Shown here: positions 378 to 23,079 of the stretch, in pieces
Position numbering within the stretch: the first letter of the stretch is position 1
Layout of the letters: the number at the start of each line of letters is the position of its first letter
Source of the DNA: an uncultured Chloroflexia bacterium
Lineage (GTDB): Bacteria; Chloroflexota; Anaerolineae; Anaerolineales; Villigracilaceae
Direction of reading: 5' to 3'
NCBI GenBank assembly: GCA_963823985.1
Contig: CAWGNR010000006.1
Span: 88,618 to 128,617 of the forward strand
DNA: 40,000 bases
Position numbers and translations under genes: made by a program
The notes under the pieces: model-generated
What the model was told of the DNA's origin: nothing
Seen by the model: only the letters and a program-made list of their open reading frames with translations
Databases searched by the model: none

Positions 378-497
378 GCCCAACGGCTCGCATTACCGGC
401 GGCGGTGAGAACCAAATGATTTAGCGGTAAAAGGTTTTCGTTCAGAATCGGTCATTTTAGCGGAGCCAGTACCGCCGTCCGCGTGCATGCACTGTTA
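378..497 (-). repeat. attC-like cassette recombination site, subfamily B (B1)
   Basis: Begins GCCCAAC (RYYYAAC) and ends ...GCATGCACTGTTA, where an IS110-family element abuts. Aligns over its full length with the B copies at 9297, 9711, 19030 and 22188. Confidence 0.7.
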
Positions 498-2244
498 CTA
501 GAATGAAACAGGTGGGGCGTGGCGGATGGTATCCTATGGTGTAGCATGACGCATCACCGGGGATGCCATCCGGGGCAGGAGCATCTGGGTAGACCGACGC
601 CGCCCATGAGAGAGAAGTCGCAATTCTCCGCTCGTGTTGTTACTTGGTCGCCTGGTGGATTCTCGTCTGGGACATAGAGCCCGAATTGGTGTGTATCACT
701 CCATGCCCTGAAATCCACGCCCCACCTATCCCGCAGGGATTGCGGGACATTCGAACTAAGGAGAGTGTAGCATGAATGAAGAGTTGCTTGCAAGACTTTC
801 CCGCCGGTATCTGGCGCTGGACATTCACAAGCACTATAGTGTGGTGGCCGGAGTGAACTTTGAAGGCCAGGTGGTGCTAGAGCCAGTGCGGATCGAGCAC
901 GGGGATCTGGAAGTGTGGCAGGTGAAACACATTCAACCCACAGACTACGTGGTAATTGAATCAACGACCAATGCCTGGCATATCTACGACCTGCTGGAGC
1001 CGTTGGCGGAGAAAGTGCTGGTGGCCAACCCGATCAAGGTAAAGCAGATCGCCAGTGCACGGGTGAAAACCGACATCCGAGATACCCTGATCCTGGCGCG
1101 GCTGCTGGCAGCCAACATGGTCCCGGAGGTCTGGGTACCACCGGCACATGTGCGCAACCTGCGCTATCTGCTATCGCAGCGGCGCCATCTGGTAGGGATG
1201 CATACCGCGACGGTCAACCGGATGCACAGTGTGGCCCACCGTCACCATCTGAGCCATGCCAGGGGGAAACGCTTCAACGAGAAGAATACCAAATGGCAGC
1301 AGGATGATGAGCTATCCGACTCAGAGAAATTCCAGCTCGAGTTGGATATGAGCACCAAAAAACACCTGTTGAGCAGACCGAGAAGATCACCAAAAAATTG
1401 AGACGCATGAGCCACCAGAAACCGTGGGCGGAGAGCATGATGTACTTGATGCAGTTGCCTGGGTTCGGTGTGATAACTGGGATGACAGTGCTGGCAGCGA
1501 TCGGAGAGATCAGTCGCTTCGATAGCCCCAAGACACCTGGCAAGCTATTCAGGGTTGACGCCTGGGCTGGAGCAGAGCGGGGTGAAACTGCGCGGCAAGA
1601 AGATCACTAAGGAAGGGCGGAAGGATCTGCGCTGGGCGATGGTAGAAGTGGCGCAACGAGCTGTAAAGTCTGATCCGCTGTGGAAGTATCGTTTCAACGA
1701 ACTCTGCCGTCGGATGCACAAGAACCAGGCGATCGTGGTCGATCGCTCATCGTTTACTTGTACTGGTCTGGTATGTCTTGAGCCGCTGCCAACCCTACCG
1801 GCACTTTTCACACGAACGGATTGCCTACAAATACCTGACCTGGTCGTGGCAGCTAAGTGAGAAGGACCGGGATGGATTGACCCGCCAGCAATTCACACGC
1901 TACTACCTGATGCGGCTGGGGATCGGGCATGATCTGAAACAGATCGCACTCAACCCAAGATACAAGCGCAATCTGGCCAGTGAGGCAGAAGTTCTGGCAT
2001 TGAGACCGGAACTGAAGCGAACAGAGTAGACAATCCTGACATGTTCCGTTTGACCGGCAAACCCTAGCATGAAACTGGTGCGTAGGGCTGTGGAAGGCTG
2101 CCAGTAAACGGGAAATTCGATAAACTTCAGCTTTAAAATCACCCTAAAAAGAAAAGCCCCGATGCCTTTTTCAAGACCCGGAGCCTTCTTCACTCAGTTT
2201 TTGCTTCTACCCTTGACACTGCTGTTTATCGGTGTTTATCGGTG
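498..2244 (+). mobile_element. decayed IS110-family insertion sequence sitting in the GTT core of attC B1
   Basis: Left end cTAGAATG and right end TTGACActgctgtttatcgg parallel the ends of the IS110 copies at 3142 and 5748. The transposase frame is broken into four pieces. A 10-bp tandem duplication gtttatcggt lies at 2224-2243. Boundaries are +/-3 nt. Confidence 0.7.
772..2029 (+). pseudogene. IS110-family transposase with multiple frameshifts
   Basis: Track ORFs 772-1401, 1398-1610, 1555-1860 and 1778-2029 are together colinear with the 415-aa transposase at 3405-4652 but lie in different frames. Shared motifs are LALDIH, ESTTNAW, ARVKTD, PEVWVPP, LPGFG, ITKEGRKDLRWAMVE and NQAIV. Confidence 0.8.
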
Positions 2245-2250
2245 GACGGC

Positions 2251-3090
2251 TCATCCATTGGGTGCTTCCTCTTGGGTAAAGAACTTAATCATATGAGAAA
2301 CAACTATTGCTGGCGCATCCTCCTGTACTAAATGACCTGCATTTGATATTGTTACAAATTTAGATGATGGCATAGAACGATGTAGTTTTCTTCCCTTCTC
2401 AATCGGAATCCATTCATCTTGTTCACCCCACAGGATAAGTACTGGACGGGTTATAGAAGCATATATGGATTTTATCTCATCAGTGAACCGCTGATCTGCT
2501 TGCGCAATCTGACGATAAAATGCACTTTTGCCAGTCTCATTCAGCCAAGGTTTGATAATATCTGACAATGTTTCGCTTGCCAGTGGATGGTAGCTCGCAC
2601 CACGAACATAGGCCAACAACATTGCTTCATGGATATAATCTGGCAAGTCAGAAAAGACTGATTGATTTTCTTTCACATGTTGAAAAAATGTAGAACCCCA
2701 TGGGCCAATTGCTACAGGGTCTATCAGAATTATCTTACGAAAATCTCGTTTTTCCAGGAGATGGGTGCGCAATACAGTTGTTCCACCAAAGTCGTGTCCG
2801 ATCACAAAAGGGGATTTCAACTCCCAATGATCTAAGAGAGCAGCGAGTACTTTATTCTGAATTCCTAGTGAGACATCCTGGTCAGAATACTTCTCGGATT
2901 GACCATAGCCAAGCAAATCATAGTAATATACTGTCCACCAATTTGCCAACGCAGGGATAATATGACGCCAGTTATAGGAAGACCAAGGGGTACCATGAAC
3001 AAGAACAAGTGGAGGCCCATCACCTTCAATATCGTATCTTATTTTCCCAGTTGCGTAAGAGAACTCTTTTCTTAATTTCCAATCATACAA
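2251..3090 (-). CDS. alpha/beta-fold hydrolase (epoxide hydrolase / haloalkane dehalogenase-like, Asp nucleophile)
   Basis: 279-aa ORF with HGTPWSSYNWRHIIP, a GHDFGG nucleophile elbow and a C-terminal GHLVQED. It is the sole ORF of the cassette bounded by attC A1 and B1. Confidence 0.8.
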   Translation of the reverse strand: MYDWKLRKEFSYATGKIRYDIEGDGPPLVLVHGTPWSSYNWRHIIPALANWWTVYYYDLLGYGQSEKYSDQDVSLGIQNKVLAALLDHWELKSPFVIGHDFGGTTVLRTHLLEKRDFRKIILIDPVAIGPWGSTFFQHVKENQSVFSDLPDYIHEAMLLAYVRGASYHPLASETLSDIIKPWLNETGKSAFYRQIAQADQRFTDEIKSIYASITRPVLILWGEQDEWIPIEKGRKLHRSMPSSKFVTISNAGHLVQEDAPAIVVSHMIKFFTQEEAPNG

Positions 3091-3141
3091 TTTTTGTTCC
3101 CTTTCTCAAACTCACATTTTGCCGCCCAACGGCTCGCGTTA

Positions 3142-3404
3142 TTAGAATGTCCTTGTTTGGGACGTGGACTCCGCGTATCCTTAAGGGTGATTGATCGCCG
3201 GGAACGCGGAAGGGACGAGAGCGTTTGGGTTGTCCGCCCGCCGGTATGGGAAGGATCTCATTGAGAGTGAGATCCAAGCCCGCTGCGTTAATTGGACACC
3301 CGGCGGAGACTAATCTGGGACCGGCAAAGTGAAGCCGAGAGCCCGCATCGGTACCTGCAGCTCAAAACCCGAAACCCACGTCCCAAACATAAGAGGAGTT
3401 TAGC
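3142..3404 (+). ncRNA. candidate IS110 bridge (guide) RNA region in the left end
   Basis: A long-range stem TGTTTGGGACGTGG 3154-3167 / CCACGTCCCAAACA 3376-3389 encloses about 210 nt with an internal hairpin at 3253-3275. Blocks match the attC target in antisense (3198-3208, 3237-3246) and in sense (3285-3290, 3299-3306). The RNA ends are unknown. Confidence 0.4.
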
Positions 3405-4652
3405 ATGAAAAAAGGACAAGATACAAGAGGCTACGAAAGGTACATGGCACTGGATATCCACCGGGAATACATCCTGGTGGGAGGGTGGAATGAGGAGAAG
3501 GAGTGGGTTCTCACGCCACGACGAGTAAGCATCGAGAAGTTTGGCGAGTGGGCGAAGAAGAATATTCGTCCGGGGGATATAGTGGTGCTGGAAACGACCA
3601 CGAATGTATGGGCGATCTACGACATTGTGGCGCCGTTGGCGAGCCGGGTCTTGGTGGCGAATGCTGCTGAAGTCTGGGAACTCGCAGGCGCGAGGGTCAA
3701 GACGGACAAGGAAGATATCAAGCGGTTGTTGAAGCTGCTCGTGGGAGGCATCGTGCCCGAAGTGTGGGTGCCGCCGATGGAGGTGAGGGAACTGCGCGCC
3801 TTCATTTCATATCGGAGCCGGTTGGTAAGCACGGCCACAATGATCCGCAATCGCCTGCAGAGCTTGCTGCACAAACACAACTTGCTGCTGCCAGAAGAAG
3901 GCATTCTGGACCAGGGCTGGTGGAATGTGCAATCTTCGATCAGTGGGTTGGAGAAGATGCAGATCCGTCAGGAACTGGCTCTGTTGCAGGAAGTCGAGAA
4001 ACTGAAGATAGCAGTCGATGAAGAGTTGGAGCGCCAAAGCACAGGTCCAATCTGGGGCAAACAAGCCTTGCAGATCATGCAGCTGCCAGGCATAGGGTTC
4101 GTTGTGGCAATGACAGTGCTTTCTGCCATTGGAGACATCTCGCGCTTTGAAAATGCAAAGCAGTTGGTAGGCTATGCAGGCATCGGTGCAGGCGTGCACG
4201 ACAGTGGCAAAACTCACAAGGAAAAGAAGATCACCAAGAAGGGACGCCGGGAATTACGCTGGGCAATGGTAGAAGCAGCTTGGCGGGCAGTGCGGAGTTC
4301 GCCCTTTTGGAAGGCAGAATACGAGAGACACCTGCAGCGCATGCGCAAACCGAACCAGGCGATTGTGGTGGTTGCCCGGAAGTTACTAATCGCCATCTGG
4401 CATGTCCTGAGTAAGGAAGAGACCGATATCCATGCAACTGAGGAAGACCTGGCGTACAAAATGCTATTGCTCTCTTGGAGCTTGAGCGAGGACGTTCGCC
4501 AGGGTTTGACCTACAAACAGTTCGCCAAATACGCGCTGATGAAATTGGGTGTCGAGACGGACATTACGCGCTTTGTACGCAAGAATGTTCCAAGACGATT
4601 GGCGCCGAGAGATGAAGTGTTGGCGCGCATCAAGGAGCTGGGCCTAGCCTGA
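3405..4652 (+). CDS. IS110-family transposase (DEDD RuvC-like N-domain plus C-terminal Ser domain)
   Basis: 415-aa ORF with MALDIH, LETTTNVW, GARVKTDKEDI, VPEVWVPP, LPGIGFVVAMTVLSAIGDISRF, HDSGKTHKEKKITKKGRRELRWAMVEAAW and NQAIVVVARKLL. A GAGGAG RBS-like sequence lies upstream. Confidence 0.9.
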   Translation: MKKGQDTRGYERYMALDIHREYILVGGWNEEKEWVLTPRRVSIEKFGEWAKKNIRPGDIVVLETTTNVWAIYDIVAPLASRVLVANAAEVWELAGARVKTDKEDIKRLLKLLVGGIVPEVWVPPMEVRELRAFISYRSRLVSTATMIRNRLQSLLHKHNLLLPEEGILDQGWWNVQSSISGLEKMQIRQELALLQEVEKLKIAVDEELERQSTGPIWGKQALQIMQLPGIGFVVAMTVLSAIGDISRFENAKQLVGYAGIGAGVHDSGKTHKEKKITKKGRRELRWAMVEAAWRAVRSSPFWKAEYERHLQRMRKPNQAIVVVARKLLIAIWHVLSKEETDIHATEEDLAYKMLLLSWSLSEDVRQGLTYKQFAKYALMKLGVETDITRFVRKNVPRRLAPRDEVLARIKELGLA

Positions 4653-4896
4653 AAAAAGCGAAAGAAAAACCGAATAGAGCGCGAACAACCCCGGCACGAA
4701 GACTTGGATTGAGTTTATCGAAATCCTTGGATTGGACTTATTGAGATCAAAGGCTGACGGGGGTGGCGAAGCGTTCCCTAATAATGAAAGAAACGAACCC
4801 GAATAATAAAAAACTGCCGTGAGAAAAGGATCTCAATCGGCAGATCTTGTTTTAGATGTTTGGTGAAACCCAATTAGAAGGAATTTATCTCAGCAC

Positions 4897-4918
4897 TTGA
4901 CAACTGCAGTAATCGGTA
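4897..4918 (+). promoter_or_regulatory. outward-facing -35 box (TTGACA 4897-4902) at the IS110 right end; it pairs with TAGAAT at 3143-3148 after end-joining
   Basis: Joining the RE to the LE through a single TA core gives TTGACA-actgcagtaatcggtat-TAGAAT, a 17-nt spacer. Copy 2 has the same arrangement (7484-7489 with 5749-5754). Confidence 0.55.
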
Positions 4919-5057
4919 CCGGCGGCTGGAGGGACGAGACTTGCCCACGAAACGGACAAAACCTAAAGCCATGAAAAAGGTCATTTTGGCGGTGCGAATC
5001 CAGCCGTCCGCGTGCACGCCGTGTTGGCACGCCTTTTGACCTTAAGATTTTTATGTT

Positions 5058-5399
5058 TTACGGCTGCTCATGAATTAAGGTGTTTAATTTCTTGATAACT
5101 TCATTGAATTGTTCGGACGGCAATTTACAACTAAATCTGGCTTTCCTTGCTTTCCAATCAAGGCTTTTTACTTGATCAGATAGGATTGCGCCTTGGATTT
5201 CTAAACCTTCAGGCATCAAAACTTCAAATGGATAACCTTTGACCTGGCTTGTTATGGGGCAAAGAAGGGCTAAACCAACTTTCCCGTTATAAGCCTTTGG
5301 AGACAAAACTAAGGCTGGTCTGTGTCCTGCCTGCTCATGTCCTGCTTGTGGATTGAATGCAATCCAAACAATGTCGCCACTTTCGGGAACATATGCCAT
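5058..5399 (-). CDS. mazF: MazF/PemK-type endoribonuclease toxin
   Basis: MAYVPESGDIVWIAFNPQAGHEQAGHRPALVLSPKAYNGKVGLALLCPITSQVKGYPFEV. The internal ATG at 5397-5399 is chosen as the start because it lies 4 nt after the mazE stop. The track ORF extends to 5441. Confidence 0.85.
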   Translation of the reverse strand: MAYVPESGDIVWIAFNPQAGHEQAGHRPALVLSPKAYNGKVGLALLCPITSQVKGYPFEVLMPEGLEIQGAILSDQVKSLDWKARKARFSCKLPSEQFNEVIKKLNTLIHEQP

Positions 5400-5403
5400 A
5401 GTT

Positions 5404-5646
5404 TCACCAAGCTTCATTCCCCAAGGATGTTCCGGTGTCAATTTCGTTGTGAAGATTATCTTTTGTGATCCCTGTTAACAATTCATCAAGCGTCCAACTT
5501 GGCGCTGGGACTGGCGTGATAACAATCCTGCCTTTGACGATACTGATTTCTACCAATGAATCGTTTTCCAGTTGGGCATCAACGGCAAAGGCTTTTGGTA
5601 TTCGCAGGGCAAGGCTGTTGCCCCATTTTTGAACTTTTGTGAGCAT
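5404..5646 (-). CDS. mazE: MazE/AbrB-SpoVT-type antitoxin
   Basis: 80-aa ORF MLTKVQKWGNSLALRIPKAFA..., immediately upstream of mazF. Confidence 0.85.
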   Translation of the reverse strand: MLTKVQKWGNSLALRIPKAFAVDAQLENDSLVEISIVKGRIVITPVPAPSWTLDELLTGITKDNLHNEIDTGTSLGNEAW

Positions 5647-5747
5647 AAGGTTATCTCCTATTTGTTTCTACAATAAAGATACACCTTTTTGTTCAATTAA
5701 TCAAGCCCTTTTCTAATTGTTCAGGGGCGTGCCAACGGCCCGCGTTA

Positions 5748-7505
5748 TTAGAATGTCCTTGTTTGGGACGTGGACTCCGCGTATCCTTAAGGGTGATTGA
5801 TCGCCGGGAACGCGGAAGGGACGAGAGCGTTTGGGTTGTCCGCCCGCCGGTATGGGAAGGATCTCATTGAGAGTGAGATCCAAGCCCGCTGCGTTAATTG
5901 GACACCCGGCGGAGACTAATCTGGGACCGGCAAAGTGAAGCCGAGAGCCCGCATCGGTACCTGCAGCTCAAAACCCGAAACCCACGTCCCAAACATAAGA
6001 GGAGTTTAGCATGAAAAAAGGACAAGATACAAGAGGCTACGAAAGGTACATGGCCTTGATACCCACCGGGAATACATCCTGGTGGGAGGGTGGAATGAGG
6101 AGAAGGAGTGGGTTCTCACGCCACGACGAGTAAGCATCGAGAAGTTTGGCGAGTGGGCGAAGAAGAATATTCGTCCGGGGGATATAGTGGTGCTGGAAAC
6201 GACCACGAATGTATGGGCGATCTACGACATTGTGGCGCCGTTGGCGAGCCGGGTCTTGGTGGCGAATGCTGCTGAAGTCTGGGAACTCGCAGGCGCGAGG
6301 GTCAAGACGGACAAGGAAGATATCAAGCGGTTGTTGAAGCTGCTCGTGGGAGGCATCGTGCCCGAAGTGTGGGTGCCGCCGATGGAGGTGAGGGAACTGC
6401 GCGCCTTCATTTCATATCGGAGCCGGTTGGTAAGCACGGCCACAATGATCCGCAATCGCCTGCAGAGCTTGCTGCACAAACACAACTTGCTGCTGCCAGA
6501 AGAAGGCATTCTGGACCAGGGCTGGTGGAATGTGCAATCTTCGATCAGTGGGTTGGAGAAGATGCAGATCCGTCAGGAACTGGCTCTGTTGCAGGAAGTC
6601 GAGAAACTGAAGATAGCAGTCGATGAAGAGTTGGAGCGCCAAAGCACAGGTCCAATCTGGGGCAAACAAGCCTTGCAGATCATGCAGCTGCCAGGCATAG
6701 GGTTCGTTGTGGCAATGACAGTGCTTTCTGCCATTGGAGACATCTCGCGCTTTGAAAATGCAAAGCAGTTGGTAGGCTATGCAGGCATCGGTGCAGGCGT
6801 GCACGACAGTGGCAAAACTCACAAGGAAAAGAAGATCACCAAGAAGGGACGCCGGGAATTACGCTGGGCAATGGTAGAAGCAGCTTGGCGGGCAGTGCGG
6901 AGTTCGCCCTTTTGGAAGGCAGAATACGAGAGACACCTGCAGCGCATGCGCAAACCGAACCAGGCGATTGTGGTGGTTGCCCGGAAGTTACTAATCGCCA
7001 TCTGGCATGTCCTGAGTAAGGAAGAGACCGATATCCATGCAACTGAGGAAGACCTGGCGTACAAAATGCTATTGCTCTCTTGGAGCTTGAGCGAGGATGT
7101 TCGCCAGGGTTTGACCTACAAACAGTTCGCCAAATATGCGCTGATGAAGTTGGGTGTCGAGAAAGACATCACGCGCTTTGTGCGTAAGAATGTACCAAGG
7201 CGATTAGCGCCGAGAGATGAAGTGCTGGCGCGCATGAAGGAGCTCGGCTTAGCCTGAGAAGTAAGCCCGAAGAACAACTGAATAAAGAATGAACAACCCC
7301 GGCATGAAAACCTTGGATTGAGTTTATCGAAAACAAAGGGCTGACGGGGGTGGCGAAGCCTTCCCTATAAATGAAAAATACTGTCCCAAAAAACAAGAAG
7401 CTGCCGTGAGAGAAGGATCTCGATCGGCAGATTTTGATTTGGATGTCTTGTGAAACTGGATCAGAAAGATTTTATCTCAGCACTTGACAACTGCAGTAAT
7501 CGGTA
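5748..7505 (+). mobile_element. IS110-family insertion sequence, copy 2 (transposase start damaged)
   Basis: The left end 5748-6010 is identical by eye to 3142-3404. The coding region is near-identical. The 3' non-coding region 7258-7505 is clearly more diverged than the rest. Confidence 0.85.
6011..7257 (+). pseudogene. IS110-family transposase, N-terminal frameshift removing the first catalytic Asp motif
   Basis: Copy 1 has ATGGCACTGGATATCCACCGG (MALDIHR). Copy 2 has ATGGCCTTGATACCCACCGG at 6051-6070, which is 1 nt shorter and carries substitutions. The frame from ATG 6011 stops at about 6130. The remaining 391-aa ORF (6082-7257) lacks LDIH. Confidence 0.7.
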
Positions 7506-7624
7506 CCGGCGGCTGGAGGGACGAGACTCGCCCACGAAACGGACAAAACCCAAAGCTACGAATAAAGCCATTTTAGCGGTGTGAATCCAGCCGTCCGCGT
7601 GCACGCCGTGTTAGCCCGCTTGTG

Positions 7625-8308
7625 TTATTGAAGGATCGCATAAATATCCTTCAAAGGTGTTTGCTTTCGATCAGTTATCCAATTTTTTACTACAAGATTT
7701 ATGCATTCCATTAAGACATTTGCAATAGCTAAATCGCCAATCAAACCTTCTCTCGTGTCAGTGTTCGATTCCAACATAAGGCCATGAGCGGTCAGAGACA
7801 TAAAACCATACAATTGTGTGTAAAGTTTGTCTAATCCAACATTTTTCGCTGCATCCTCGATTTTTAATCTGGGACGTATATCTTTTCCCCAGTCCGAATT
7901 GAGTAATTCTTTTGTTTTGTCTTCATTGGTAACTTCATCAACAACCCTGCCATGACCAGTATTAAGTTGTTTTCGAGCTATGCGTTTTAATTCATTCCTT
8001 GTAGCGTCAACAAAAGTTTGGGCATTTTCATTTGACTTTGTAATCCAACAAACCCATATAAGACTTTCCAACAAACCACGAGCTAGAATGTTTAAAGGTG
8101 CTGGTAAGTTAGCTTTGGCGCAAATTACACAACCCTCAGACAATTCTACTGCTCGTCTAAAGCTATAGATTAGTAGATCTTCTCGTTGAGTGTTAAAGTG
8201 CCTGTTGGAGTAATCAGACAATCTGTCCTTTGCGACTTGAATTTCATACTCCAAACCGTCAATTTCAATTTGCAAATCTGAGTCTAAGTCTGACATTCCT
8301 TTTCCCAT
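7625..8308 (-). CDS. hypothetical protein (single-gene cassette)
   Basis: 227-aa ORF with its start 21 nt after attC A3 and its stop 9 nt before attC A2. I recognise no motif with confidence. Confidence 0.6.
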   Translation of the reverse strand: MGKGMSDLDSDLQIEIDGLEYEIQVAKDRLSDYSNRHFNTQREDLLIYSFRRAVELSEGCVICAKANLPAPLNILARGLLESLIWVCWITKSNENAQTFVDATRNELKRIARKQLNTGHGRVVDEVTNEDKTKELLNSDWGKDIRPRLKIEDAAKNVGLDKLYTQLYGFMSLTAHGLMLESNTDTREGLIGDLAIANVLMECINLVVKNWITDRKQTPLKDIYAILQ

Positions 8309-8328: not shown

Positions 8329-8456
8329 GGCTAACGGCTCGCGTTACCGGCGGCTGGAGGACGAGACTCACCCACGAAACGGCCAAACCCCAAGGCCACG
8401 AAAAAGCCCATTTTGGCGGTGAGAATCCAGCCGTCCGCGTGCACGCTGTGTTAGCC
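8329..8456 (-). repeat. attC-like site, subfamily A (A3), intact
   Basis: GGCTAACGGCTCGCGTTACCGGCGGCTGG...CCAGCCGTCCGCGTGCACGCTGTGTTAGCC. Confidence 0.8.
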
Positions 8457-9296: not shown

Positions 9297-9419
9297 GGCT
9301 AACGGCTCGCATTACCGGCGGCGGTGAGAACCAACCGATTTAGCGGGAAAAGGTTTTCGTTCAGATTCCGCCAATTTGACGGAGCCAGTACCGCCGTCCG
9401 CGTGCATGCATTGTTAGAA
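9297..9419 (-). repeat. attC-like site, subfamily B (B2), intact
   Basis: GGCTAACGGCTCGCATTACCGGCGGCGGT...ACCGCCGTCCGCGTGCATGCATTGTTAGAA. Confidence 0.8.
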
Positions 9420-9427
9420 AGCACGCC

Positions 9428-11736: not shown

Positions 11737-11885
11737 GGAATAATAAACCTAACACCATGACTGGACAAGAAGCCTAACGGTTTGCGTTAGTGGTTGGCGG
11801 GCGGGCTTGGATAATGCCTAAGAGCAGGGAAAACCCAAAGCCAGAAAAATGCTTGTAAATCGCGCAGAATCCGGCCAATCCACTG

Positions 11886-14425: not shown

Positions 14426-15952
14426 TCTTGGTCAGTATCATTTTGCACATTAACAACATAGTTACATGAGCCAGATTTGCTTGGCGAATTCGTTAGGGGA
14501 CAAGCCTGGAATAGCCAGGCCTTGGTGTGGGCGGTTGTTATACTCTGGCTGGAATTGAAGCAACCAGAGTTGCAAAGCCTTTACGTCATTCCAGGATTTG
14601 TTGCGCAACCAATCTTTGAGCGTGAGCACAAAGCGCTCGGCAATCCCATTACTTTGTGGGCGATGGCGATAGATCGGGACGTGAACGAAATCGGTTTCCA
14701 ACGCCAGATCGGCTAAGGCTTTGGAGCGGAAATGGGTTCCCTGGTCACTGATGAGGAACGCCAATTCTTTTGGTAGGACTGCGCATAAAGCCATCGCCAC
14801 CTCATCGCTGGTGACTTTTGAACCGGTACGGAAGATGGGCAGTCCCAAGCACTGTCGCGTACAGTTGTCTGTGATCACCAGGATGGCAATCCAGGAACGA
14901 GATGGAGAGATGACCGTCCGAGGAACCAGTCTGGATTTCTCGATTGGCTTGATGCCAGGCTTGGTTTTCCAGCTGGCGCTGCTGGAGGGTGGCTTGACGC
15001 GTTTGGCGAACGGTTTTCCAAGCCTGGCGGGCCAACTGATATGTCGCTCGCCGCTCTTTGCGTTCTGCACGGGTCATGGCTTGATAAGCCTGACGCGTGT
15101 GACGCCAGGCGGTTCTTCGCAGCTTTCCAAGAGATATCTTCCTGTTTGCGTTGTTCTCGGACATGATAACGCTCGGTTCGTTCTTCCCATTCTTTGCGCC
15201 AACGGGTCGCTTCCTGGGATACCGGAATGCGTTCAGACTTGCGCCGAACCAGGCGGTCTCGTGTGGCCTGTGCATATTGGTGCATCGCTTCGGCATAATC
15301 CAGATCTGCTTCAGCGAATACTTGACCCGGCCAATGCGCCTCTTCGCCAGGAGGGTGAGAACGTTCGACGATCAGGTGTCCGGAAGAACCACTGACAGCA
15401 GGAAGCTTTTCTTGCGCCATATGTTCCTCTGGAACAAAGCACAGATCAATATTGACTGCTTGACCCGACTGTTCGGCCGTTCGCACTATCACTTCACGGT
15501 TTCTTTTTTCCTCACACCGCGTTCCGGCCACAGTTCTGCATCACGCAGAATGCGTTTCACCGTGTTGGGGCTGAGCAAGGGCACCCAGTTGTTGGCTTTC
15601 GCTATCTCCTGGGCAATGCGTGCTTTACCCCAGTCAGGATGCTCTCGCCGCATATCCGTCACCCGTTGCGCAATCTCTGCACTTTTGTAGTTCAGTTTAT
15701 GCGCAACCCGGCTGGCAAATTCTTCCAATCCGGCATACCCGTACTCATCAAAGCGTGGTTTCCAGTAGTAGAACGTTCTTCGGCTTAAGCGAGCTTTCTG
15801 GCAAGCCTGAGTAATGCTGCCGGTTGCTTCCCACGTTTCAAATAACAGCTTCCGCTGCTGAGACGTGGAAAAACCATAATATGTCCGTTTTGGGCTCATG
15901 TCACTATGTTACCCGATTATCGGGCTTGTGTAAGATGCTCTTGACTAAAACA
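14426..15952 (-). mobile_element. rve-superfamily (IS481-like / possibly IS1202-group) insertion sequence with 17-bp target duplication
   Basis: Flanked by a perfect direct repeat AATTCCCAATAAAACTG (14409-14425 and 15953-15969). It has imperfect terminal inverted repeats, with inner blocks AACATAGTTACATGAGC at 14453-14469 and GCTCATGTCACTATGTT at 15895-15911. Transposase pieces lie inside. Confidence 0.7.
14462..15899 (-). pseudogene. DDE (rve) transposase split over three or more frames
   Basis: ORF 15489-15899 is an IS481-like HTH N-terminus (ARLSRRTFYYWKPRFDEYGYAGL, HPDWGKARIAQEI). The 14875-15531 frame carries AVNIDLCFVP. ORF 14462-15070 carries VITDNCTRQ...SDQGTHF...PQSNGIAERF. The frames overlap, so at least two frameshifts are present. 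Confidence 0.65.
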
Positions 15953-16210
15953 AATTCCCAATAAAACTGGTAAGTCTATGAAAAGAATTGCCAGAAGAAA
16001 TGCAAACAACGGCGGATAACCAACTGAGTTGAGTATTGACTTTAGCGCAATAAATGCTACCGTTGCGAGTGCGCCAGGCATTATGTGTAGAAGAAATGAT
16101 TGTAAGAGCGTGTGCTGAGATGCCGTAGAGGAACTTTCGTATTTATTCATTAACAATTCCCTTCAGCCTAACCGAGTTGTTCTTGATTTTACCTTGTTGT
16201 GCCGAGTGCC

Positions 16211-16339
16211 GCCGAACGGCCCGCGTTACCGGCGGCTGGAGGGACGAGACTCGCCCACGAAACGGACAAAATCCAAAGCTACGAAAAAGCCTGATTTGAC
16301 GGTGAGAATCCAGCCGTCCGCGTGCACGCCGTGTTAGGC
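16211..16339 (-). repeat. attC-like site, subfamily A (A7), intact
   Basis: GCCGAACGGCCCGCGTTACCGGCGGCTGG...CCAGCCGTCCGCGTGCACGCCGTGTTAGGC. Confidence 0.8.
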
Positions 16340-16364: not shown

Positions 16365-16901
16365 CTAAGCGTCAACATAGCGAAGGATTTCTTCCACGAC
16401 GCTGACAAGTGGCTGTATTGCATCTATGACAATTCCGTTGCTGGGTATGTCTTCTTTCGTTCGATGCAATCGCGTAACGAGTTCCTTTTCTTCTGGTTTT
16501 CCGCCCCAGTCAGTCGGATCTCGCGCCACGCGCTCATCAAGCCGCCGATACAATGTGTCAAGGTCGTTGACCTCAAGAACAAAAACGCCATCCAATAAAT
16601 CTATGAATTTTGAAAAATTCCTCGAACCACCACAAAAGAAAGAGATTGCTTGGCTGTGATCAGCGATCACGGATTTAACTTTGTCTATATCCCAAAGATG
16701 ATGTTCCTGTTGCCATACGGCTTTGTCCCTCTCGCTCTTATGGACAGGTTCATTTACCGGTTCTCCTGTCTTTGGGTCGCCCCGATATTTCAACTCTCGG
16801 TCACCGTGGATGACGTGATAACCGCGTCGCTGCAATTCTTCAGCCACCGCGGTTTTGCCCGTGCCAGAGACTCCCTCGATAAGATAATTTCTCTTACCCA
16901 T
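16365..16901 (-). CDS. P-loop NTPase, nucleoside/nucleotide kinase-like
   Basis: 178-aa ORF with a Walker A motif GVSGTGKT near the N-terminus, of small kinase-like size. Confidence 0.65.
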   Translation of the reverse strand: MGKRNYLIEGVSGTGKTAVAEELQRRGYHVIHGDRELKYRGDPKTGEPVNEPVHKSERDKAVWQQEHHLWDIDKVKSVIADHSQAISFFCGGSRNFSKFIDLLDGVFVLEVNDLDTLYRRLDERVARDPTDWGGKPEEKELVTRLHRTKEDIPSNGIVIDAIQPLVSVVEEILRYVDA

Positions 16902-16996
16902 TGTCTCTTAACTTTTTGGTTGACGTACAAATCTTGCCTTTCGATAGATTTCGCTAACAGAGGGTAAGGGAGAGGGGCGACCTCTCCCTCCCCGTT

Positions 16997-18968
16997 GTCG
17001 CAATGGGGTTGATTCCCCATATTATACCGGCGTGCGGCTTTCCCGCGCCGGGCGACCCCCGCTGCCTTGCCCTGAATGAGGGAACACGACCTTACTCTAA
17101 GTCAGTTGCCCATATAAAGACACCAAGCCCATGCGGGAAAGGTGTTTGATCAGCCAGCGCCGGTTGTCGCCGCGCGAGATACGTTTGAACTTCATAGAAC
17201 GCAGGCGAGCCCGGATCCAATTGTCGAGAAGCGTGAATTGATCTTTGACCGAGGCAAAATGTGTAGCAAAGTAACGGGCAAACCCAATGAGAACGCGGTT
17301 GAGCTTTTGAATAGCTTCCAGGCCGAAGTTATGGTGGCGAACGGTGAGGGAGCGCACCCGTTCCTTGAATTTCTCTATGGACTTTTGGCGGACAGAAACG
17401 CGACGGCGCGAGAGATGGAACCCCAGGAAGTCGAACCCTTCGACAAAGTTGGTGATCTTTGTTTTAGTGGGGGACAAGCTGAGGCCCAAGTCCTGCCGGA
17501 TGATATTGTCCACGAAAATCAGAGCTTGTTTGGCTTGGGCGTGGCTGCGGCACAAGACCACGAAATCGTCGGCGTAGCGCACGAAGCGGTAGCCAGCTTG
17601 TGTCAATCGTTGGTCGAGGACATCCAGGACGATGTTCGCCAGCAGGGGCGAAATCACACCGCCTTGGGGAGTGCCGGAAAGCGTAGGGAGGAAAGAACGA
17701 TCTTCCATTACGCCCGCCGAGAGAAACTCGCGGAGGATGCATAGGATATTACCGTCGGCAACCCGTTCAGCCACCTGGTTCAGGATAAGGATGTGGGGTA
17801 TATTATCGAAGAAGGCTTGGATGTCAGCATCCACGACCCATTTGTAACCAGCTCTATGGGCAGTAATAACAGCTTGAACTGCCTGATGAGCATTACGACC
17901 AGGGCGGAAACCAAACGAGCGCTCAGAGAAGTGTGGCTCGAAGATGGGTTCAAGGAGCGAACGCACAACTTCTTGAGCCACGCGGTCTCTGACAGTGGGG
18001 ATGCCCAACGGGCGTAGTTTGCCTTGCCCTTTGGGGATATAGGCACGGCGGAGGGGAGCGGCGTGGTAGGACCCCTTGTGTTTGAGGTCGAACATCAGGG
18101 CGGCAAGGTTGTCGTCCAGGTTGGCTTCAAACGAGCGGATGTCTACCTTGTCGACTCCGGCTGCTCCGCGATTGCGCTTAACGGCCTGGAAGGCACGGCG
18201 CATACGAGCCATGTTGATTTGTCCGGTCAGGGAATGGGATTTACGGCGTTGGTCGGGCAACAGACTCTCCTTGCAGAGAGGATGTGTTGTGAAGTAACAG
18301 AGGTTGAACCAGCGGGGCATTCTCACTTCGAGCGGCGTCTTTTCCGGTCAGCAGGATTACCCGCCTGCCCTGGCGGGCTAGGCCAGGGAAACAAGCCAGG
18401 CGGATGAGAAATGGCATCTCCATGCTGGGAAACATACCAGAACGAGAGAGTATCAGCCTTTTCTGGAAACTCCTGTTGCCTCACGGCAGACAGGTACAGC
18501 CCTTCGTTACTCTGAATGAGCAGTAACTACTATAGCTGTGCTGACTACCCCAAACTGACCGGCCAGCAGGAGTGACCGGACAGACCGCAGCATAGGGAGG
18601 TCACTTCGCACAGCTTACATCGTCCCGATGTCCTTCGGGATAGACCTCCGTTACCCAAGCCTCTGACTGACACTGTCCAGGGCAAGGGACTGCGTGGGTT
18701 CTCAGTTGGTTAGCACACTATCCTTTTATGACCGTGAAGACACCAAGCACGCTCCAGGTAGGACGACCCTAACTGCGTGTGGGAAGTCCTGGCAATTGTC
18801 GGTTACCAATGCTTCAGCCTTAGGCGCAGCCTGGCATACCTGGACCCGCCGAAACGGCCTGCCCTGAGCTTGTCGAAGGGTGCCTCCCCAGTCACCCTGT
18901 GGCTTGCCCACTTCGCGACTACTCCTTGCGGGGTAGCCCTGGGAACTATGTGGCCAGCAGTTCCGCAC
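16997..18968 (-). mobile_element. group II intron (second, different copy)
   Basis: On the minus strand the 5' end reads GTGCGGAACTGCTGGCC. A domain V-like hairpin CCGGCGCGGGAAAGCCGCACGCCGG has a 2-nt bulge. A domain VI-like hairpin ends ...TTGCGAC. The RT ORF lies inside. Ends are approximate. Confidence 0.7.
17097..18326 (-). CDS. group II intron reverse transcriptase/maturase
   Basis: 409-aa track ORF with NRGAAGVDKVDI, RPLGIP, SFGFRP, QGGVISPLLANIVL and VRYADDFVVLCRS. The true start is probably the internal MARMRRAF at 18212. Confidence 0.9.
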   Translation of the reverse strand: MRMPRWFNLCYFTTHPLCKESLLPDQRRKSHSLTGQINMARMRRAFQAVKRNRGAAGVDKVDIRSFEANLDDNLAALMFDLKHKGSYHAAPLRRAYIPKGQGKLRPLGIPTVRDRVAQEVVRSLLEPIFEPHFSERSFGFRPGRNAHQAVQAVITAHRAGYKWVVDADIQAFFDNIPHILILNQVAERVADGNILCILREFLSAGVMEDRSFLPTLSGTPQGGVISPLLANIVLDVLDQRLTQAGYRFVRYADDFVVLCRSHAQAKQALIFVDNIIRQDLGLSLSPTKTKITNFVEGFDFLGFHLSRRRVSVRQKSIEKFKERVRSLTVRHHNFGLEAIQKLNRVLIGFARYFATHFASVKDQFTLLDNWIRARLRSMKFKRISRGDNRRWLIKHLSRMGLVSLYGQLT

Positions 18969-19029
18969 CGCCGCAGAGCAGCACGGATCAGACTTTCACT
19001 GATTGGATAATGTACCGTTCAACTCACGC

Positions 19030-19151
19030 GCCTAACGGCCCGCATTACCGGCGGCGGTGAGAACCAAACGATTTATCGGAAAAGGTTCTCGCTCAGAATC
19101 AGCCATTTTAACGGAGCCAGTACCGCCGTCCGCGTGCATGCATTGTTAGCC
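19030..19151 (-). repeat. attC-like site, subfamily B (B4), intact
   Basis: GCCTAACGGCCCGCATTACCGGCGGCGGT...ACCGCCGTCCGCGTGCATGCATTGTTAGCC. Confidence 0.8.
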
Positions 19152-19222: not shown

Positions 19223-19462
19223 TCACGCCTTGCTTTCGGAGACTTCAATGAGAGTTGAAATCTCGACGCTACCTTCAAGTCTTTCCATATCTGCGCGCAG
19301 ACCTTGTCCGATATATGCCTTGATCAAAGCTTGATATCCTGTAAAGCCAAGCAGGGGCGCAATTCGCTTTAAGTCTTCTACCACATCTTCGGGAATACGC
19401 AAGCTGACCATTTTCATCGGACGATTTTTCTGCAAACGTTGGGAAAGTTTATTGATTTTCAT
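19223..19462 (-). CDS. brnA: BrnA-like antitoxin
   Basis: 79-aa ORF with VSLRIPEDVVEDLKRIA, downstream of and overlapping the BrnT-like gene. Confidence 0.7.
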   Translation of the reverse strand: MKINKLSQRLQKNRPMKMVSLRIPEDVVEDLKRIAPLLGFTGYQALIKAYIGQGLRADMERLEGSVEISTLIEVSESKA

Positions 19463-19745
19463 AAGCTTCTCTTTCTACTTTTGTTACCAATCGGGCGGAA
19501 ATAATACGGATAATGTCATCACGCAAAACATAAACCACAAACAACAATTGCCAGGTCGTGGATAGGCCAATGATCGTTTCGCGGAGTTCACCATCAATGG
19601 TTTCGTCTTCAAGGTAATAAACGAACGGGTCGAAAAATGCTTCACAAGCCAGCTCGAAGGAAACATTGTGCTTGCGGAAGTTGGCGGCGGCTTTGAGACG
19701 ATCCCATTCGAAGGCAATGTTATGAAGGGAATATCTGACATTCAT
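19449..19745 (-). CDS. brnT: BrnT-like (DUF497) ribonuclease toxin
   Basis: 98-aa ORF with FEWDRLKAAANFRKHNVSFELACEAFFDP...IIRIISAR. The toxin-first order is typical of brnTA. Confidence 0.75.
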   Translation of the reverse strand: MNVRYSLHNIAFEWDRLKAAANFRKHNVSFELACEAFFDPFVYYLEDETIDGELRETIIGLSTTWQLLFVVYVLRDDIIRIISARLVTKVEREAYENQ

Positions 19746-19807: not shown

Positions 19808-19937
19808 GGCTAACGGCTCGCGTTACCGGCGGCTGGAGGGACGAGACTTGCTCACGAAACGGAACAAAATCCAAAGCCACGAAAAAGGTCATTTTAGCGG
19901 TGAGAATCCAGCCGTCCGCGTGCACGCCGTGTTAGGC
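19808..19937 (-). repeat. attC-like site, subfamily A (A8), intact
   Basis: GGCTAACGGCTCGCGTTACCGGCGGCTGG...CCAGCCGTCCGCGTGCACGCCGTGTTAGGC. The stop of ORF 19932-20330 is the TAA inside GCCTAAC (minus sense). Confidence 0.8.
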
Positions 19938-20330
19938 TGAGCCCGCCATTCTTGTTTTTTGCAGTCCAGCGATTCCCATTGTGATGCACATCATAGATAG
20001 AATCAAAACAGGCCAATGGTTATTCAGAAAAGTTACCGCTGCTTCAAGAAAAATAACCAATTGCGAAAACTTGATAAGAGCATAGGCGACCATTACCACC
20101 AAGAGCAACCCTTCAAAGGCTTTCTGGTAACTCTGCCTAAGTTGTAGCCGTTCCCATTCCTCGTAACTGTTGTTTCCAGCGGCTAGGCTGCCTAGAACCG
20201 CGACCGTCAGCATAAAAGATAGGAGTTCGAAATCTGGGATGAATAGAAATGCAATGCCGATGATCCCGACAACAAGTGTCAGAATAACCATGAAACGGTA
20301 GCTCACTCTAGCCCTACTTTTTGTGTTCAT
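19932..20330 (-). CDS. small multi-pass membrane protein, unknown function
   Basis: 132-aa ORF with four hydrophobic segments. It is a single-gene cassette. Confidence 0.6.
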   Translation of the reverse strand: MNTKSRARVSYRFMVILTLVVGIIGIAFLFIPDFELLSFMLTVAVLGSLAAGNNSYEEWERLQLRQSYQKAFEGLLLVVMVAYALIKFSQLVIFLEAAVTFLNNHWPVLILSMMCITMGIAGLQKTRMAGSA

Positions 20331-20487: not shown

Positions 20488-22187
20488 GAGACTGTCGAAA
20501 AAGTGTTTTTTCAAGAGCAAACCCCGGCCGGGCGATGACTGGAAGCGCAGTTTCCTGGCCGGAAGGCAAGGAGACTGGGGATTTGATCCCCCATGGGGCT
20601 AGTGGAGCGCCCCAAAAGAGTGGATTTTGCCGATATTATGTACTATAGCGAATAACCTCCATTGTACATCCACCTTAGATTTGGAACGTAGCGTGAATTG
20701 ATTCATGCGTTTTTGGACGCAGATATTGGCAAAGACCGGTTCAACGATCCCCAGTCGCCTGCCATAAATGCGCTTGCCCTCATCACTATCGATCTTGGCT
20801 TTCATCGCATCGATCAGGTTGGGGGATTGCCTCTCAACTTGAATGGAAAGATTGCGGCGTACAGTATTTGCCTTCTTCAAGCAACGTGCCCTCAAAGGAC
20901 AGGCAGCGCAATCTTCAGGGCGAGCATGGTAGAGATCATAGGTGCGATGGCGGTTGACCTGGTTGCGAGCATAGCAGGTCAATTCCTTCCCTTGCGGACA
21001 ACGATACGCCTGTTTGTCTGGATCGAACGAGAAGTCAGAAACAGTGAAGAGACTCGGCTTGGCGTCTGGACGCTGCCGGCCGTGGATGCCGTCCTTGAAA
21101 CGTTCTTGCTCGGCAAAGCGTGGATCGCGTGTGCGGTATTGGATGTCGGGGATGTAAGCATCGATCTTTTCATCTTTGCAGATCTTCAAGCTGTTGAGCG
21201 AGTGATAGTTGGGATCGGCGGTCAATTGCTTGCCTTGAAAATAGGTTTCATCTTTTCCGATGGCGACGGCGTTTTTTTTTGCGCTATCCAACATGGGCTT
21301 AAGATTTTCGTGATCCTGGCTGGCGAAGGCTTCCGCAGCGAGAATGACCTGATGCTTGGAATCGACCAGCGCCTGCGCGTTGTAGCCCTGGATGACCCCA
21401 TGAGAAGAAGGCATCTTCACCGATTCGTTGTCGATCACATTGCTTTGGATCTCCTTACCTTCGCTGCCGCGCTTCGGTTCCCGATCCTTTAGAAATTCAT
21501 TGAGCCGCTCGACCTGCCGCTGGAAGCGTTGTTCGCGCTTCTTTTGACGTTCGATTTCAACTTGAGGATGTTGATCTGCCTGGGCATGTTCTTCCATCAC
21601 GCGCTGGAGTTTTTCCTGCAGCTTATCACGCTTGTGTTTGAGTTCATCGAGCGTGCCGCTCCATTCTTTGGAGACATTGGCAGAGAGTTTGACGCCATCG
21701 AGAGAAAAGTGCGTGCCGCCCAGCAAATCCAATTCATCGCAGACCGTGAGAATATCGCTGAAGATGGAAGAGATCTCTTTTTGCATGGAAGACACAAAGG
21801 CGGCAATCGTGCTGTGATCAGGAGCATACCCATAAGAGAGCGCAATGAAGAGGATGTTTTCGTGGCAGGCGCGTTCGATCTGGCGGGAACTGATCATGCC
21901 TTTGGCGTAGGCTAGCAGGATGACCTTGAGCAGGATCTTGGGATGGATGGCGGTTGCGCCGGTCTCGTCGTTGTTGTAGCGCGCATCAAAGACCGACAGG
22001 TCGATATGTTTCTCCACCAATTGGCTGATGGTGTGCTCTAGCGTACCTGGGACAAGTTGGTCCTGCAGGGAAATCGGGAGCATGACCAATTGATCTTCAT
22101 TGCATGGTTTGAATTTTGCCATAGGTTCCTCTATCTCATAGAACCCCCTAGCTTTGCACTAGATTCTCCCACTTTTTCGACAGGCTC
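20488..22187 (-). mobile_element. IS1182-family insertion sequence
   Basis: 18-bp terminal inverted repeats GAGACTGTCGAAAAAGTG (20488-20505) and CACTTTTTCGACAGGCTC (22170-22187), 17/18 matching. It is flanked by AAC/AAC and contains a single 507-aa transposase ORF. Confidence 0.8.
20599..22122 (-). CDS. IS1182-family DDE transposase
   Basis: 507-aa ORF. The N-terminus MAKFKPCNEDQLVMLPISLQDQLVPGTLEH...HPKILLKVILLAYAKGMISSRQIERACHENILFIAL matches the family pattern as I recall it. Confidence 0.8.
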   Translation of the reverse strand: MAKFKPCNEDQLVMLPISLQDQLVPGTLEHTISQLVEKHIDLSVFDARYNNDETGATAIHPKILLKVILLAYAKGMISSRQIERACHENILFIALSYGYAPDHSTIAAFVSSMQKEISSIFSDILTVCDELDLLGGTHFSLDGVKLSANVSKEWSGTLDELKHKRDKLQEKLQRVMEEHAQADQHPQVEIERQKKREQRFQRQVERLNEFLKDREPKRGSEGKEIQSNVIDNESVKMPSSHGVIQGYNAQALVDSKHQVILAAEAFASQDHENLKPMLDSAKKNAVAIGKDETYFQGKQLTADPNYHSLNSLKICKDEKIDAYIPDIQYRTRDPRFAEQERFKDGIHGRQRPDAKPSLFTVSDFSFDPDKQAYRCPQGKELTCYARNQVNRHRTYDLYHARPEDCAACPLRARCLKKANTVRRNLSIQVERQSPNLIDAMKAKIDSDEGKRIYGRRLGIVEPVFANICVQKRMNQFTLRSKSKVDVQWRLFAIVHNIGKIHSFGALH

Positions 22188-22327
22188 AACGGCTCGCATT
22201 ACCGGCGGCGGTGAGAACCAACCGATTTATCGGGAAAGGTTTTCGCTCAGAACCAGCCATTTTAACGGAGCCAGTACCGCCGTCCGCGTGCATGCATTGT
22301 TAGCTGGCGCTTTGACCGAAAAACACT

Positions 22328-22657
22328 CTATTGATCTTGAAGCGCTGTTTCCAAAACTTCTGTAACCCAACCATTAAGGCTTTTATCTTTCAACTTGGCT
22401 TGAATATAGGCTTTCCGATGTAACTCGGCAGGCAAACGGAGGACGAATTTTCCCGAAAATGGCTTTTCTGGGGACTTACCACGCTGAGCGCAGAAATCAA
22501 GATAATCATCAACTGACTCCCGAAATGCCTGTTGAACTTCTTCAACCGTTGTGCCTTCAAACGTAATGACATCGCGGACATTGATCACTTCCCCGAATAA
22601 AATGCCCGCTTCCTCATCAATTTCAACCTTACCGATATACCCTTTATATTCCATCAT
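22328..22657 (-). CDS. hicB: HicB-family antitoxin
   Basis: 109-aa ORF with YKGYIGKVEIDEEAGILFGEV and a C-terminal RHH-like LRLPAELHRKA. It overlaps hicA by 4 nt. Confidence 0.8.
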   Translation of the reverse strand: MMEYKGYIGKVEIDEEAGILFGEVINVRDVITFEGTTVEEVQQAFRESVDDYLDFCAQRGKSPEKPFSGKFVLRLPAELHRKAYIQAKLKDKSLNGWVTEVLETALQDQ

Positions 22658-22908
22658 GGCTTTACTCCTGCCGCTTCAAGAAACCTGCGAATGGACTTCA
22701 CTGCACCTTTATTGATTTCTTTACGCGGATGAGGACGATGAAACACGGCCCTCACATCTTTCAAAGCAACACGAACGCGTGAACCGCTGCCTTCTGAAAT
22801 TTCAGCGCCTAGAGCAACAAAGAGAGCTTCGACATCCCGCCAAGCAATGTTGGCTCGCTCAGGCTTTTCGAATATGGCTTGTAACGTTTTGCGGTGTTTT
22901 CGGTCCAC
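22654..22908 (-). CDS. hicA: HicA-family mRNA interferase toxin
   Basis: 84-aa ORF with RKTLQAIFEKPERANIAWRDVEALFVALGAEISEGSGSRVRV. Confidence 0.8.
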   Translation of the reverse strand: MDRKHRKTLQAIFEKPERANIAWRDVEALFVALGAEISEGSGSRVRVALKDVRAVFHRPHPRKEINKGAVKSIRRFLEAAGVKP

Positions 22909-22987
22909 GGCGAAATAATATCAGAAAATGATACTGCAATCAAGGGTTTTTATACCCCATTTTTGGAGCTGTATTTCCAAAGAAGCC

Positions 22988-23079
22988 AGCTAACGAATAA
23001 CGAATTAAGGATTGATGCGGCGGAAGGGAACAAGGGAAAGCAAGGGGTCCGGGTGCCGCCGCATCAATCCGAGTTGGAC
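22988..23079 (-). repeat. attC-like site, short variant (C1)
   Basis: AGCTAAC...GTTGGAC ends with a perfect 15-bp stem GGATTGATGCGGCGG (23009-23023) / CCGCCGCATCAATCC (23056-23070). The lower flank is complementary to the B5 upper flank. Confidence 0.65.

Follow-up and report, generated by a model that had tools for sequence, protein, structure and literature searches.

What is the repeat that punctuates the first 23 kb of this DNA, and what do the genes between its copies belong to? The stretch analyzed here (the window) is 40 kb long, and an earlier note on it had proposed that positions 378 to 23079 hold an array of integron gene cassettes. We reach the same reading. With a probability of about 0.93, this region is an integron-type array of about 13 cassettes coded on the minus strand, and it lacks an integrase within the window. 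The reading is carried by the core motifs of the repeat, a covarying stem, bulges on one strand, relatives that are linked to integron integrases, and cassettes that are shared with other loci. Judging from the surrounding sequence, the array is most likely chromosomal and its host a member of the Chloroflexota (Anaerolineae-like). The kind of element is well known, and the main new points are insertion sequence (IS) elements of the IS110 family and introns that appear to be directed to its attC recombination sites.

A family of attC sites in one orientation

Using a repeat search, exact-motif mapping, and three covariance models, we recovered 13 copies of one imperfect palindrome of 122 to 130 nt. 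The copies run from 378 to 22305, and all are on the minus strand, in line with the single orientation originally described. The repeat search had put them into several overlapping families. In the exact-motif mapping, the plus strand had 12 cases of TACCGGCGGC followed by GCCGTCCGCGTGCA after 69 to 77 nt, and the minus strand had none. IS110-family elements interrupt two of the 13 copies and a group II intron interrupts one, which leaves ten intact. The earlier account has to be corrected here, since three of the 13 validated sites are interrupted by mobile elements. The sites are as follows, all on the minus strand:

378-500: attC a1 (subfamily 2), R'' core disrupted by an IS110-type insertion after 497
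3124-3141 (R'-side fragment) and 4917-5029 (main part): attC a2, with an IS110 element between
5730-5747 (R'-side fragment) and 7504-7616 (main part): attC a3, with a second copy of the same IS between
8329-8456: attC a4 (motif and covariance models)
9297-9419: attC a5 (motif and covariance models)
9711-9833: attC a6 (motif and covariance models)
10106-10234: attC a7 (motif and covariance models)
10967-11094: attC a8 (motif and covariance models)
11772-11885 (3' part) and 13820-13834 (5', R'' part): attC a9, with a group II intron between
16211-16339: attC a10 (motif and covariance models)
19030-19151: attC a11 (motif and covariance models)
19808-19937: attC a12 (motif and covariance models)
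22184-22305: attC a13 (motif and covariance models)
22988-23079: a 14th, attC-like site, unvalidated, with GTCCAAC and GTTAGCT cores, 92 nt

A covariance model built from the ten intact window copies (R1) and run with filters off returned 12 strong matches, all on the minus strand and none to the right of 22308. It also gave a weaker match at 11769-11900 and short matches at 3121-3150 and 5727-5756. These matches are partial because two attCs are split by IS110 copies and one by a group II intron, as read from the junctions. For a1, the original R'' core was probably GTCCAAC, which positions 2243-2246 restore. As a stand-in for the attC model of IntegronFinder, we trained a further model (R3) only on six attCs from a public array linked to an integrase gene, locus L015. 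It recovered all 13 window sites on the minus strand, with E values from 5e-10 to 4e-24, and found nothing credible elsewhere. The per-site E values of this independent model exclude chance as the source of the 13 sites. Across the 40-kb window, none of the three models found a copy to the right of 22308 or on the plus strand, and there was accordingly none among the core genes at 26-40 kb. A strict scan for RYYYAAC and GTTRRRY with ungapped arm complementarity gave no match, which is not evidence against the sites because attC arms contain bulges. Rfam at its gathering threshold reported only a group II intron domain in the window, but it holds no attC family and thus provided no test for attC.

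The earlier count of 14 sites of 92 to 130 bp holds for 13 of them, at 122 to 130 nt. The 14th, which is the most array-proximal, is matched by none of the three models (R1, R2, and R3), and its stem sequence is absent from the 22 public genome loci described below. It forms a perfect 15-bp hairpin without bulges, has AAC and GTT cores, and has asymmetric spacers of 2 and 14 nt. The element may be a heterologous or degenerate attC, or not an attC at all.

On the minus strand, each site opens with GCCTAAC, a 3-nt spacer, and a bulged stem, continues through a variable center of about 60 nt into the return stem, and closes with a 5-nt spacer and GTTAGGC. A structural alignment combined 53 sites, drawn from the window and from 22 public loci. 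The top-strand consensus is GCCTAAC ... GTT[A/G]G[G/C]C, which bears out the RYYYAAC-like and GTTRRRY-like heptamers noted at the outset. The R-box pairs are 90% paired, standard pairs occupy 95.2% of cells, and 15 of the 21 pairs show compensatory changes on both sides. None of 500 shuffles reached the observed pairing values, and sliding the partner by 1 to 3 columns left at most 38% paired. The alignment was fitted to the model and favors the structure somewhat; a plain MAFFT alignment (A2) already has three covarying pairs. Within the window, two subfamilies differ by paired changes (GCGT/ACGC versus GCAT/ATGC, and CTGG/CCAG versus CGGT/ACCG), and their central ~60 nt differ while the arms are conserved. 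Subfamily-2 attCs also share about 38 nt beyond the R'' core, into the 3' ends of the cassettes (repeat family D5: 380-538, 9299-9457, and 9713-9871). This similarity suggests that the cassettes, or at least their attC-proximal ends, may be of recent common origin.

Bulges are confined to a single arm. On the minus strand this is the 5' arm, and on the plus strand it is the 3' arm. Nearly invariant among the 53 sites are a top-strand A in 52 (bottom-strand T) and a GC opposite a single A in all 53; a G is found in 40. On the plus strand of the window, the bulged bases are therefore T, G/C, and C, in the 3' arm. In the work of Bouvier et al. from 2009, this is reportedly the arm that carries the extrahelical bases of the recombinogenic attC bottom strand. 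The G/C bulge and the T bulge are about 6 nt apart here by hand count, a spacing like that of attC-aadA7. In all, the sites have the features by which an attC is recognized: complementary cores, a covarying stem of R box, spacer, and L box, bulges on one strand, a variable center, and a length within 57 to 141 nt.

Cassettes, relatives, and the search for an integrase

If the plus strand is the attC bottom strand, the cassettes should be on the minus strand, with each open reading frame (ORF) ending before its own attC. This is what we observed. The plausible cassette ORFs are all on the minus strand, as had been claimed:

2251-3090, minus: alpha/beta hydrolase (Pfam Abhydrolase_1, 1.8e-27)
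5058-5646, minus: mazE (5404-5646) and mazF (5058-5441) (Pfam PemK_toxin, 1.4e-26; MazE_antitoxin, 9.6e-9)
7625-8308, minus: DUF5677 protein (Pfam)
8468-9244, minus: CAAX (Rce1-like) protease (Pfam)
9428-9673, minus: short ORF of 81 amino acids (aa), no family
9834-10105, minus: 272-nt cassette with only a 45-aa ORF, whose stop is in the core
10247-10942, minus: 231-aa ORF, no family
11089-11736, minus: DUF3267 zincin-like protein (Pfam), its stop being the core TAA
13854-16156, minus: CAAX protease (Pfam Rce1-like), split into 13854-14459 and 15917-16156
16365-16901, minus: P-loop kinase-like protein (Pfam AAA_18)
19223-19745, minus: brnT (19449-19745) and brnA (19223-19462) (Pfam BrnT_toxin, 2e-21)
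19932-20330, minus: 132-aa ORF with hydrophobic stretches, no family, stop inside the core
22328-22908, minus: hicA (22654-22908) and hicB (22328-22657) (Pfam)

Three of the 13 cassettes are thus toxin-antitoxin pairs (MazEF, BrnTA, and HicAB), and two encode CAAX proteases. The name brnA comes from its position beside brnT and from the label in the earlier note, as the ORF has no family match of its own. The 231-aa ORF may begin with a lipoprotein-like signal, as judged by eye from its N terminus. With the mobile elements subtracted, the intervals between attCs measure 272 to 920 nt, close to the 0.3 to 0.9 kb estimated at the outset. Most ORFs stop 6 to 26 nt ahead of their own attC. That agrees with the proposed distance of 0 to 30 nt, but the value for brnA is 69 to 71 nt rather than 75 nt. 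Measured from the start of the model match, which lies 3 nt before R'', stops range from -69 to +8 nt. In two cassettes, the TAA inside the core is itself the stop (11089-11091 and 19932-19934), just as had been noticed.

The same attC family occurs elsewhere. A pattern scan of species-representative genomes yielded 22 loci, mostly in metagenome-assembled genomes (MAGs) of Chloroflexota (Anaerolineae, Caldilinea, and Ardenticatenaceae), and a metagenome scan added at least 120 further contigs. Locus L015 encodes a 327-aa integron integrase (TIGR02249, 470 bits against a cutoff of 265) that is 49.5% identical to IntI1. Its gene, intI, is divergent from six attCs of the window's family, each preceded by an ORF on the same strand. 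Among the metagenome matches listed, L095 (10 attCs) and L127 (2 attCs) have an intI fragment at the contig end, again divergent from the array, and three others (L033, L057, and L067) have 13 to 15 attCs each, on one strand. The three loci with integrase genes share one polarity, which is the one that makes the minus strand of the window coding. Orientation is single within every multicopy public locus, and at most sites in the window and the public loci, a same-strand ORF ends just upstream of the core or inside it.

Cassettes are shared with other Chloroflexota MAGs as well. The DUF3267 cassette with its attC (10970-11749) is 90.8% identical to a sequence in locus L017; the homology ends at the GTTA of R', and the sequences beyond it are unrelated. 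In locus L010, we found a match to the 3' end and attC of the first CAAX cassette (8468-9244; 95% identity) and another to the HicAB cassette (83% identity), in the opposite relative order. The cassettes are therefore discrete units bounded at the R' core, and shared cassettes in shuffled order are the outcome expected of integron recombination. Near-identical attCs also occur on five contigs (L014, L015, L018, L019, and L020) from bins assigned to Abawacabacteria, Hadarchaeota, Babeliaceae, Nitrospirota, and Desulfobulbaceae. The Desulfobulbaceae contig measures 112 kb; the other four, at 1.2 to 7.6 kb, are short and could be misbinned. That attCs are shared between phyla and between domains has already been reported (PMC9668308).

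The polarity of the three integrase-bearing relatives places the expected intI just to the right of 23.1 kb, on the plus strand. Six-frame Pfam searches of 22850-26200 found no tyrosine recombinase there, nor a remnant of one. Neither intI nor a remnant was found in the whole 40-kb window by tblastn with IntI1, or with the L015 integrase at E ≤ 100. The absence of a tyrosine recombinase, first claimed for 23.1 to 26.1 kb, thus extends to the full 40 kb. At the expected attI/intI position, there is instead the following element:

23196-24391, minus: IS4-family element (NF033591, 178.6 bits) with inverted repeats

The proximal end of the window has no similarity to the intI-proximal regions of L015, L095, and L127, and since attI sequences are not conserved, this is weak evidence. 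A promoter and terminator scan around the proximal end gave nothing above shuffled expectation. A cluster of attC sites that lacks an integron integrase (CALIN) is defined by two or more attC sites and the absence of intI from their vicinity; Cury et al. grouped sites with a 4-kb distance and repeated the analysis with 10 kb (PMC4889954). With 13 attC sites and no intI in 17 kb on the proximal side, the window holds a CALIN by this definition, as the earlier note had it.

How such an array would work can be outlined from known integrons. Each unit consists of an ORF, in most cases promoterless, or a toxin-antitoxin pair, followed by an attC of 122 to 130 nt. In vivo, the plus strand of the window (attC bottom strand) would fold, when single stranded, into a hairpin made of the R box (CTAAC/GTTAG), a short unpaired spacer, the L-box stem, and the conserved bulged bases. 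An integron integrase would recognize the shape of this hairpin, so that recombination of attC with attC could excise a cassette circle and recombination of attC with attI could insert one. With no integrase in the window, the cassettes could be moved only by an integrase supplied in trans.

Several points weigh against an integron-type array at 378-23079. The window contains no intI and no recognizable attI, and cassette recombination at this locus is presumed from the comparisons above. The 14th site falls outside the attC family and has no bulges. All three covariance models come from this one family, and general resemblance to attC is outside their reach. The contig with the complete integrase, L015, was binned to an archaeal MAG, though this binning may be wrong. 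Chromosomal location and taxon were read from flanking genes of Hdr, DsrE, and TusA types and from the fact that Chloroflexota MAGs gave the closest DNA matches.

We considered whether the repeat could be something other than attC. A palindrome like the repetitive extragenic palindromic (REP) sequences or miniature inverted-repeat transposable elements (MITEs), spreading alone and unrelated to integrons, would also be short, structured, and present in multiple copies between genes, and some public loci hold one copy in 8 kb. However, the strictly single orientation within every locus, the fixed placement relative to the 3' end of a same-strand ORF, and the absence of copies from 17 kb of core genes to the right all speak against it. 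So do the integron integrases that the repeat adjoins with canonical polarity and the cassette-sized homology blocks that stop at the R' core. The REP/MITE explanation is already largely refuted, and we regard it as extremely improbable. Only marginally more credible is a role as RNA, in which the hairpins would be terminators, processing sites, or stabilizers of a long minus-strand operon. In favor of this, the hairpins come immediately behind ORFs on the coding strand, and folding is also seen for the top strand of attC. Yet the stem is not followed by a T-run, single copies have unexceptional folding energies (z from -0.4 to -2.2), and the plus strand has the conserved bulges on its 3' arm, as recombinogenic attC bottom strands do. 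Moreover, a role as RNA leaves both the link to IntI and the shuffling of cassettes unexplained.

A different question is whether the array is a CALIN in its own right or the distal part of a complete sedentary chromosomal integron. In the latter case, intI and attI would have been split off by IS-mediated rearrangement, or would lie elsewhere in the genome or beyond the window, and the cassettes would still be shuffled. We give this possibility somewhat less than even odds. The attCs are homogeneous (two subfamilies), toxin-antitoxin pairs make up three of the 13 cassettes, in the manner of large chromosomal integrons, intI is present in relatives that share the attC family, and the IS4 element sits exactly at the proximal end. 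In addition, half of the CALINs described by Cury et al. are in replicons that encode IntI, and rearrangement is listed there as an origin (PMC4889954). On the other hand, there is no intI fragment within 17 kb to the right, and the dissimilarity of the proximal end to the integrase-bearing relatives points, weakly, the same way. An intI would not be expected on the left, which is the distal side.

IS110 elements, introns, and the right flank

Seven mobile elements make up about 12.5 kb of the 22.7-kb array, several of them at fixed attC positions. There are three IS110 elements, two group II introns, one IS1182 element, and one IS481-like element:

498-2242, plus: IS110-family element 1 (Pfam DEDD_Tnp_IS110/Transposase_20), in the R'' core of a1
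3142-4916, plus: IS110-family element 2, transposase at 3405-4652 (NCBIfam NF033542, 189.7 bits), TA on both sides
5748-7503, plus: IS110-family element 3, 99 to 100% identical to element 2
11886-13819, minus: group II intron 1, reverse transcriptase (RT)/maturase at 12013-13308 (Rfam RF02003, 87.4 bits; TIGR04416, 435.9 bits)
14455-15910 (1,456 nt): IS481-like element (HTH_32, rve), inverted repeats 14455-14472 and 15893-15910, splitting the CAAX cassette
16997-19027 (boundaries approximate), minus: group II intron 2, RT/maturase at 17097-18326 (TIGR04416, 384 bits)
20488-22187, minus: IS1182-family element, transposase at 20599-22122 (NF033551, 286 bits), with inverted repeats, abutting the R' end of a13

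IS110 elements 2 and 3 occupy the same position (GCGT-TA / IS / TA-CCGG) in two different attCs. A relative in locus L012 (1236-3108), about 80% identical to them, is inserted at the same attC position with a different cassette adjoining. Element 1 is inserted at CTGT-TA / IS / TG-GACGG, in the R'' core, and is 85% identical to an element in locus L003 (7-1737) that occupies the same attC position. Its transposase is frameshifted (772-1401, 1398-1610, and 1555-1860), as is that of the IS481-like element. Segments that match the flanks of an insertion, upstream of the transposase gene of an IS110 element, are a prediction of the bridge RNA/seekRNA mechanism. In the noncoding region upstream of the transposase of elements 2 and 3 (3142-3404 in element 2), we found CCGCCGGTA, the reverse complement of the right flank, together with GCGTTA ... 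CCGGCGG, which matches the left and right flanks. In element 1, the upstream region (498-771) has GTGTTG and GCCGCCCA at aligned positions, and these match its own site. The guide-like segments therefore covary with two different attC targets. These upstream regions look like bridge RNAs or seekRNAs programmed for attC, in the layout of IS110 rather than that of IS1111.

Both introns are in cassette orientation, and both encode an RT/maturase without an endonuclease domain. Intron 1 splits a9 between GCGTG and CAGTGG, and intron 2 starts 2 nt past the R' of a11. Directly after intron 2, at 16952-16996, there is a short hairpin, GGGGAGGGAGAGG..CCTCTCCCTTACCC, followed by GTTAGCG. With the intron removed, the sequence would read GCGCAAC-stem-GTTAGCG, which may be a miniature attC-like site fused to a11 that the family models do not match.

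Together, these observations suggest two attC-directed behaviors that have not been clearly described. One is RNA-guided insertion of IS110-type elements into attC, with the guide upstream of the transposase and with one lineage programmed for the L arm (GCGT-TA-CCGG) and another for the R'' core (CTGT-TG-GACGG). The other is the entry of group II introns into attC in cassette orientation. We put this joint proposal forward tentatively and consider it possible rather than likely.

To the right of the IS4 element, 24392-26150 is AT rich (about 43% G+C), lies between that element and the core genes, and contains an excisionase-like HTH_17 ORF (25214-25462, minus strand). It also contains tRNA-like T-arm and acceptor fragments (around 25527-25555 and 25737-25775) and a terminator-like hairpin (25779-25803). 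ARAGORN found no tRNA or transfer-messenger RNA, and Rfam at E ≤ 1 on 22900-26200 gave only a chance microRNA match. An integrated element may have left the tRNA-like fragments as its att remnant; if so, the array as a whole could lie within a larger island. From about 26.1 kb, ArsR-like and TusA-like ORFs (read by eye) are followed by core-type Hdr-like, DsrE, VKOR, and TrmO genes of higher G+C content. The longest ORF in this part, 33466-35031 (plus strand, 521 aa), looks spurious. Opposite it, a P-loop-like motif is repeated at 34066-34134 and 34920-34988 (repeat family D11). The repetition suggests that the minus strand encodes a pair of paralogous ATPases here, flanked by two genes with Nitro_FeMo-Co domains.

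Known systems and what the array adds

Integrons and CALINs are documented in Chloroflexi/Chloroflexota (PMC4889954, PMC2426708, PMC9668308), and CALINs are common (PMC4889954). Like the CALINs of Cury et al. (2016, PMC4889954), the window array has mostly unknown or accessory cassettes, no antibiotic resistance genes, and IS elements. It is larger than most of them, and its left end is not in view. With sedentary chromosomal integrons such as the Vibrio superintegron, whose attCs are of the Vibrio cholerae repeat (VCR) type, it shares long, homogeneous attCs, a large number of small cassettes without known function, several toxin-antitoxin pairs, and, in the window, flanks of chromosomal-looking core genes. 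Unlike the Vibrio superintegron, it has no intI, attI, or cassette promoter (Pc) in view, its attC sequence is different, its host is probably a member of the Chloroflexota, and more than half of the array consists of mobile elements.

Insertion sequences that target attC are known in the IS1111 family (ISPst6, ISKpn4, and the IS1111-attC group), where a seekRNA is involved (PMC11187229). The elements described here resemble the IS1111-attC group in that they have a DEDD transposase, a fixed attC position and orientation, and noncoding matches to both target strands. They differ in that two lineages occupy two different attC positions. In the IS1111 family, the noncoding region is usually downstream, whereas the guide-like matches here are upstream of the transposase gene, as in the IS110-type layout. 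The two introns are like the group IIC-attC introns (S.ma.I2 and relatives) in encoding an RT/maturase without an endonuclease domain and in lying in attC or directly after it. In contrast to the described group IIC-attC introns, which insert into the bottom strand and are oriented against the cassettes (PMC3001079), both window introns are in cassette orientation. Cassette-oriented introns in attC have been reported as rare (PMC7923331).

The array leaves the understanding of how integrons work unchanged. It adds a well-resolved example, with 13 attCs, three toxin-antitoxin cassettes, and two CAAX-protease cassettes, to the few known outside Proteobacteria, and it shows one attC family to be widespread in Chloroflexota-type MAGs and environmental metagenomes. 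It also offers a natural setting in which to test RNA guidance of IS110 elements to structured DNA sites. If the tentative joint reading of IS110 elements and introns is true, then, with near-identical attCs in MAGs of several phyla, mobile elements of three unrelated kinds would use this attC family as a common landing pad, one that would extend beyond the Proteobacteria in which such elements were defined.

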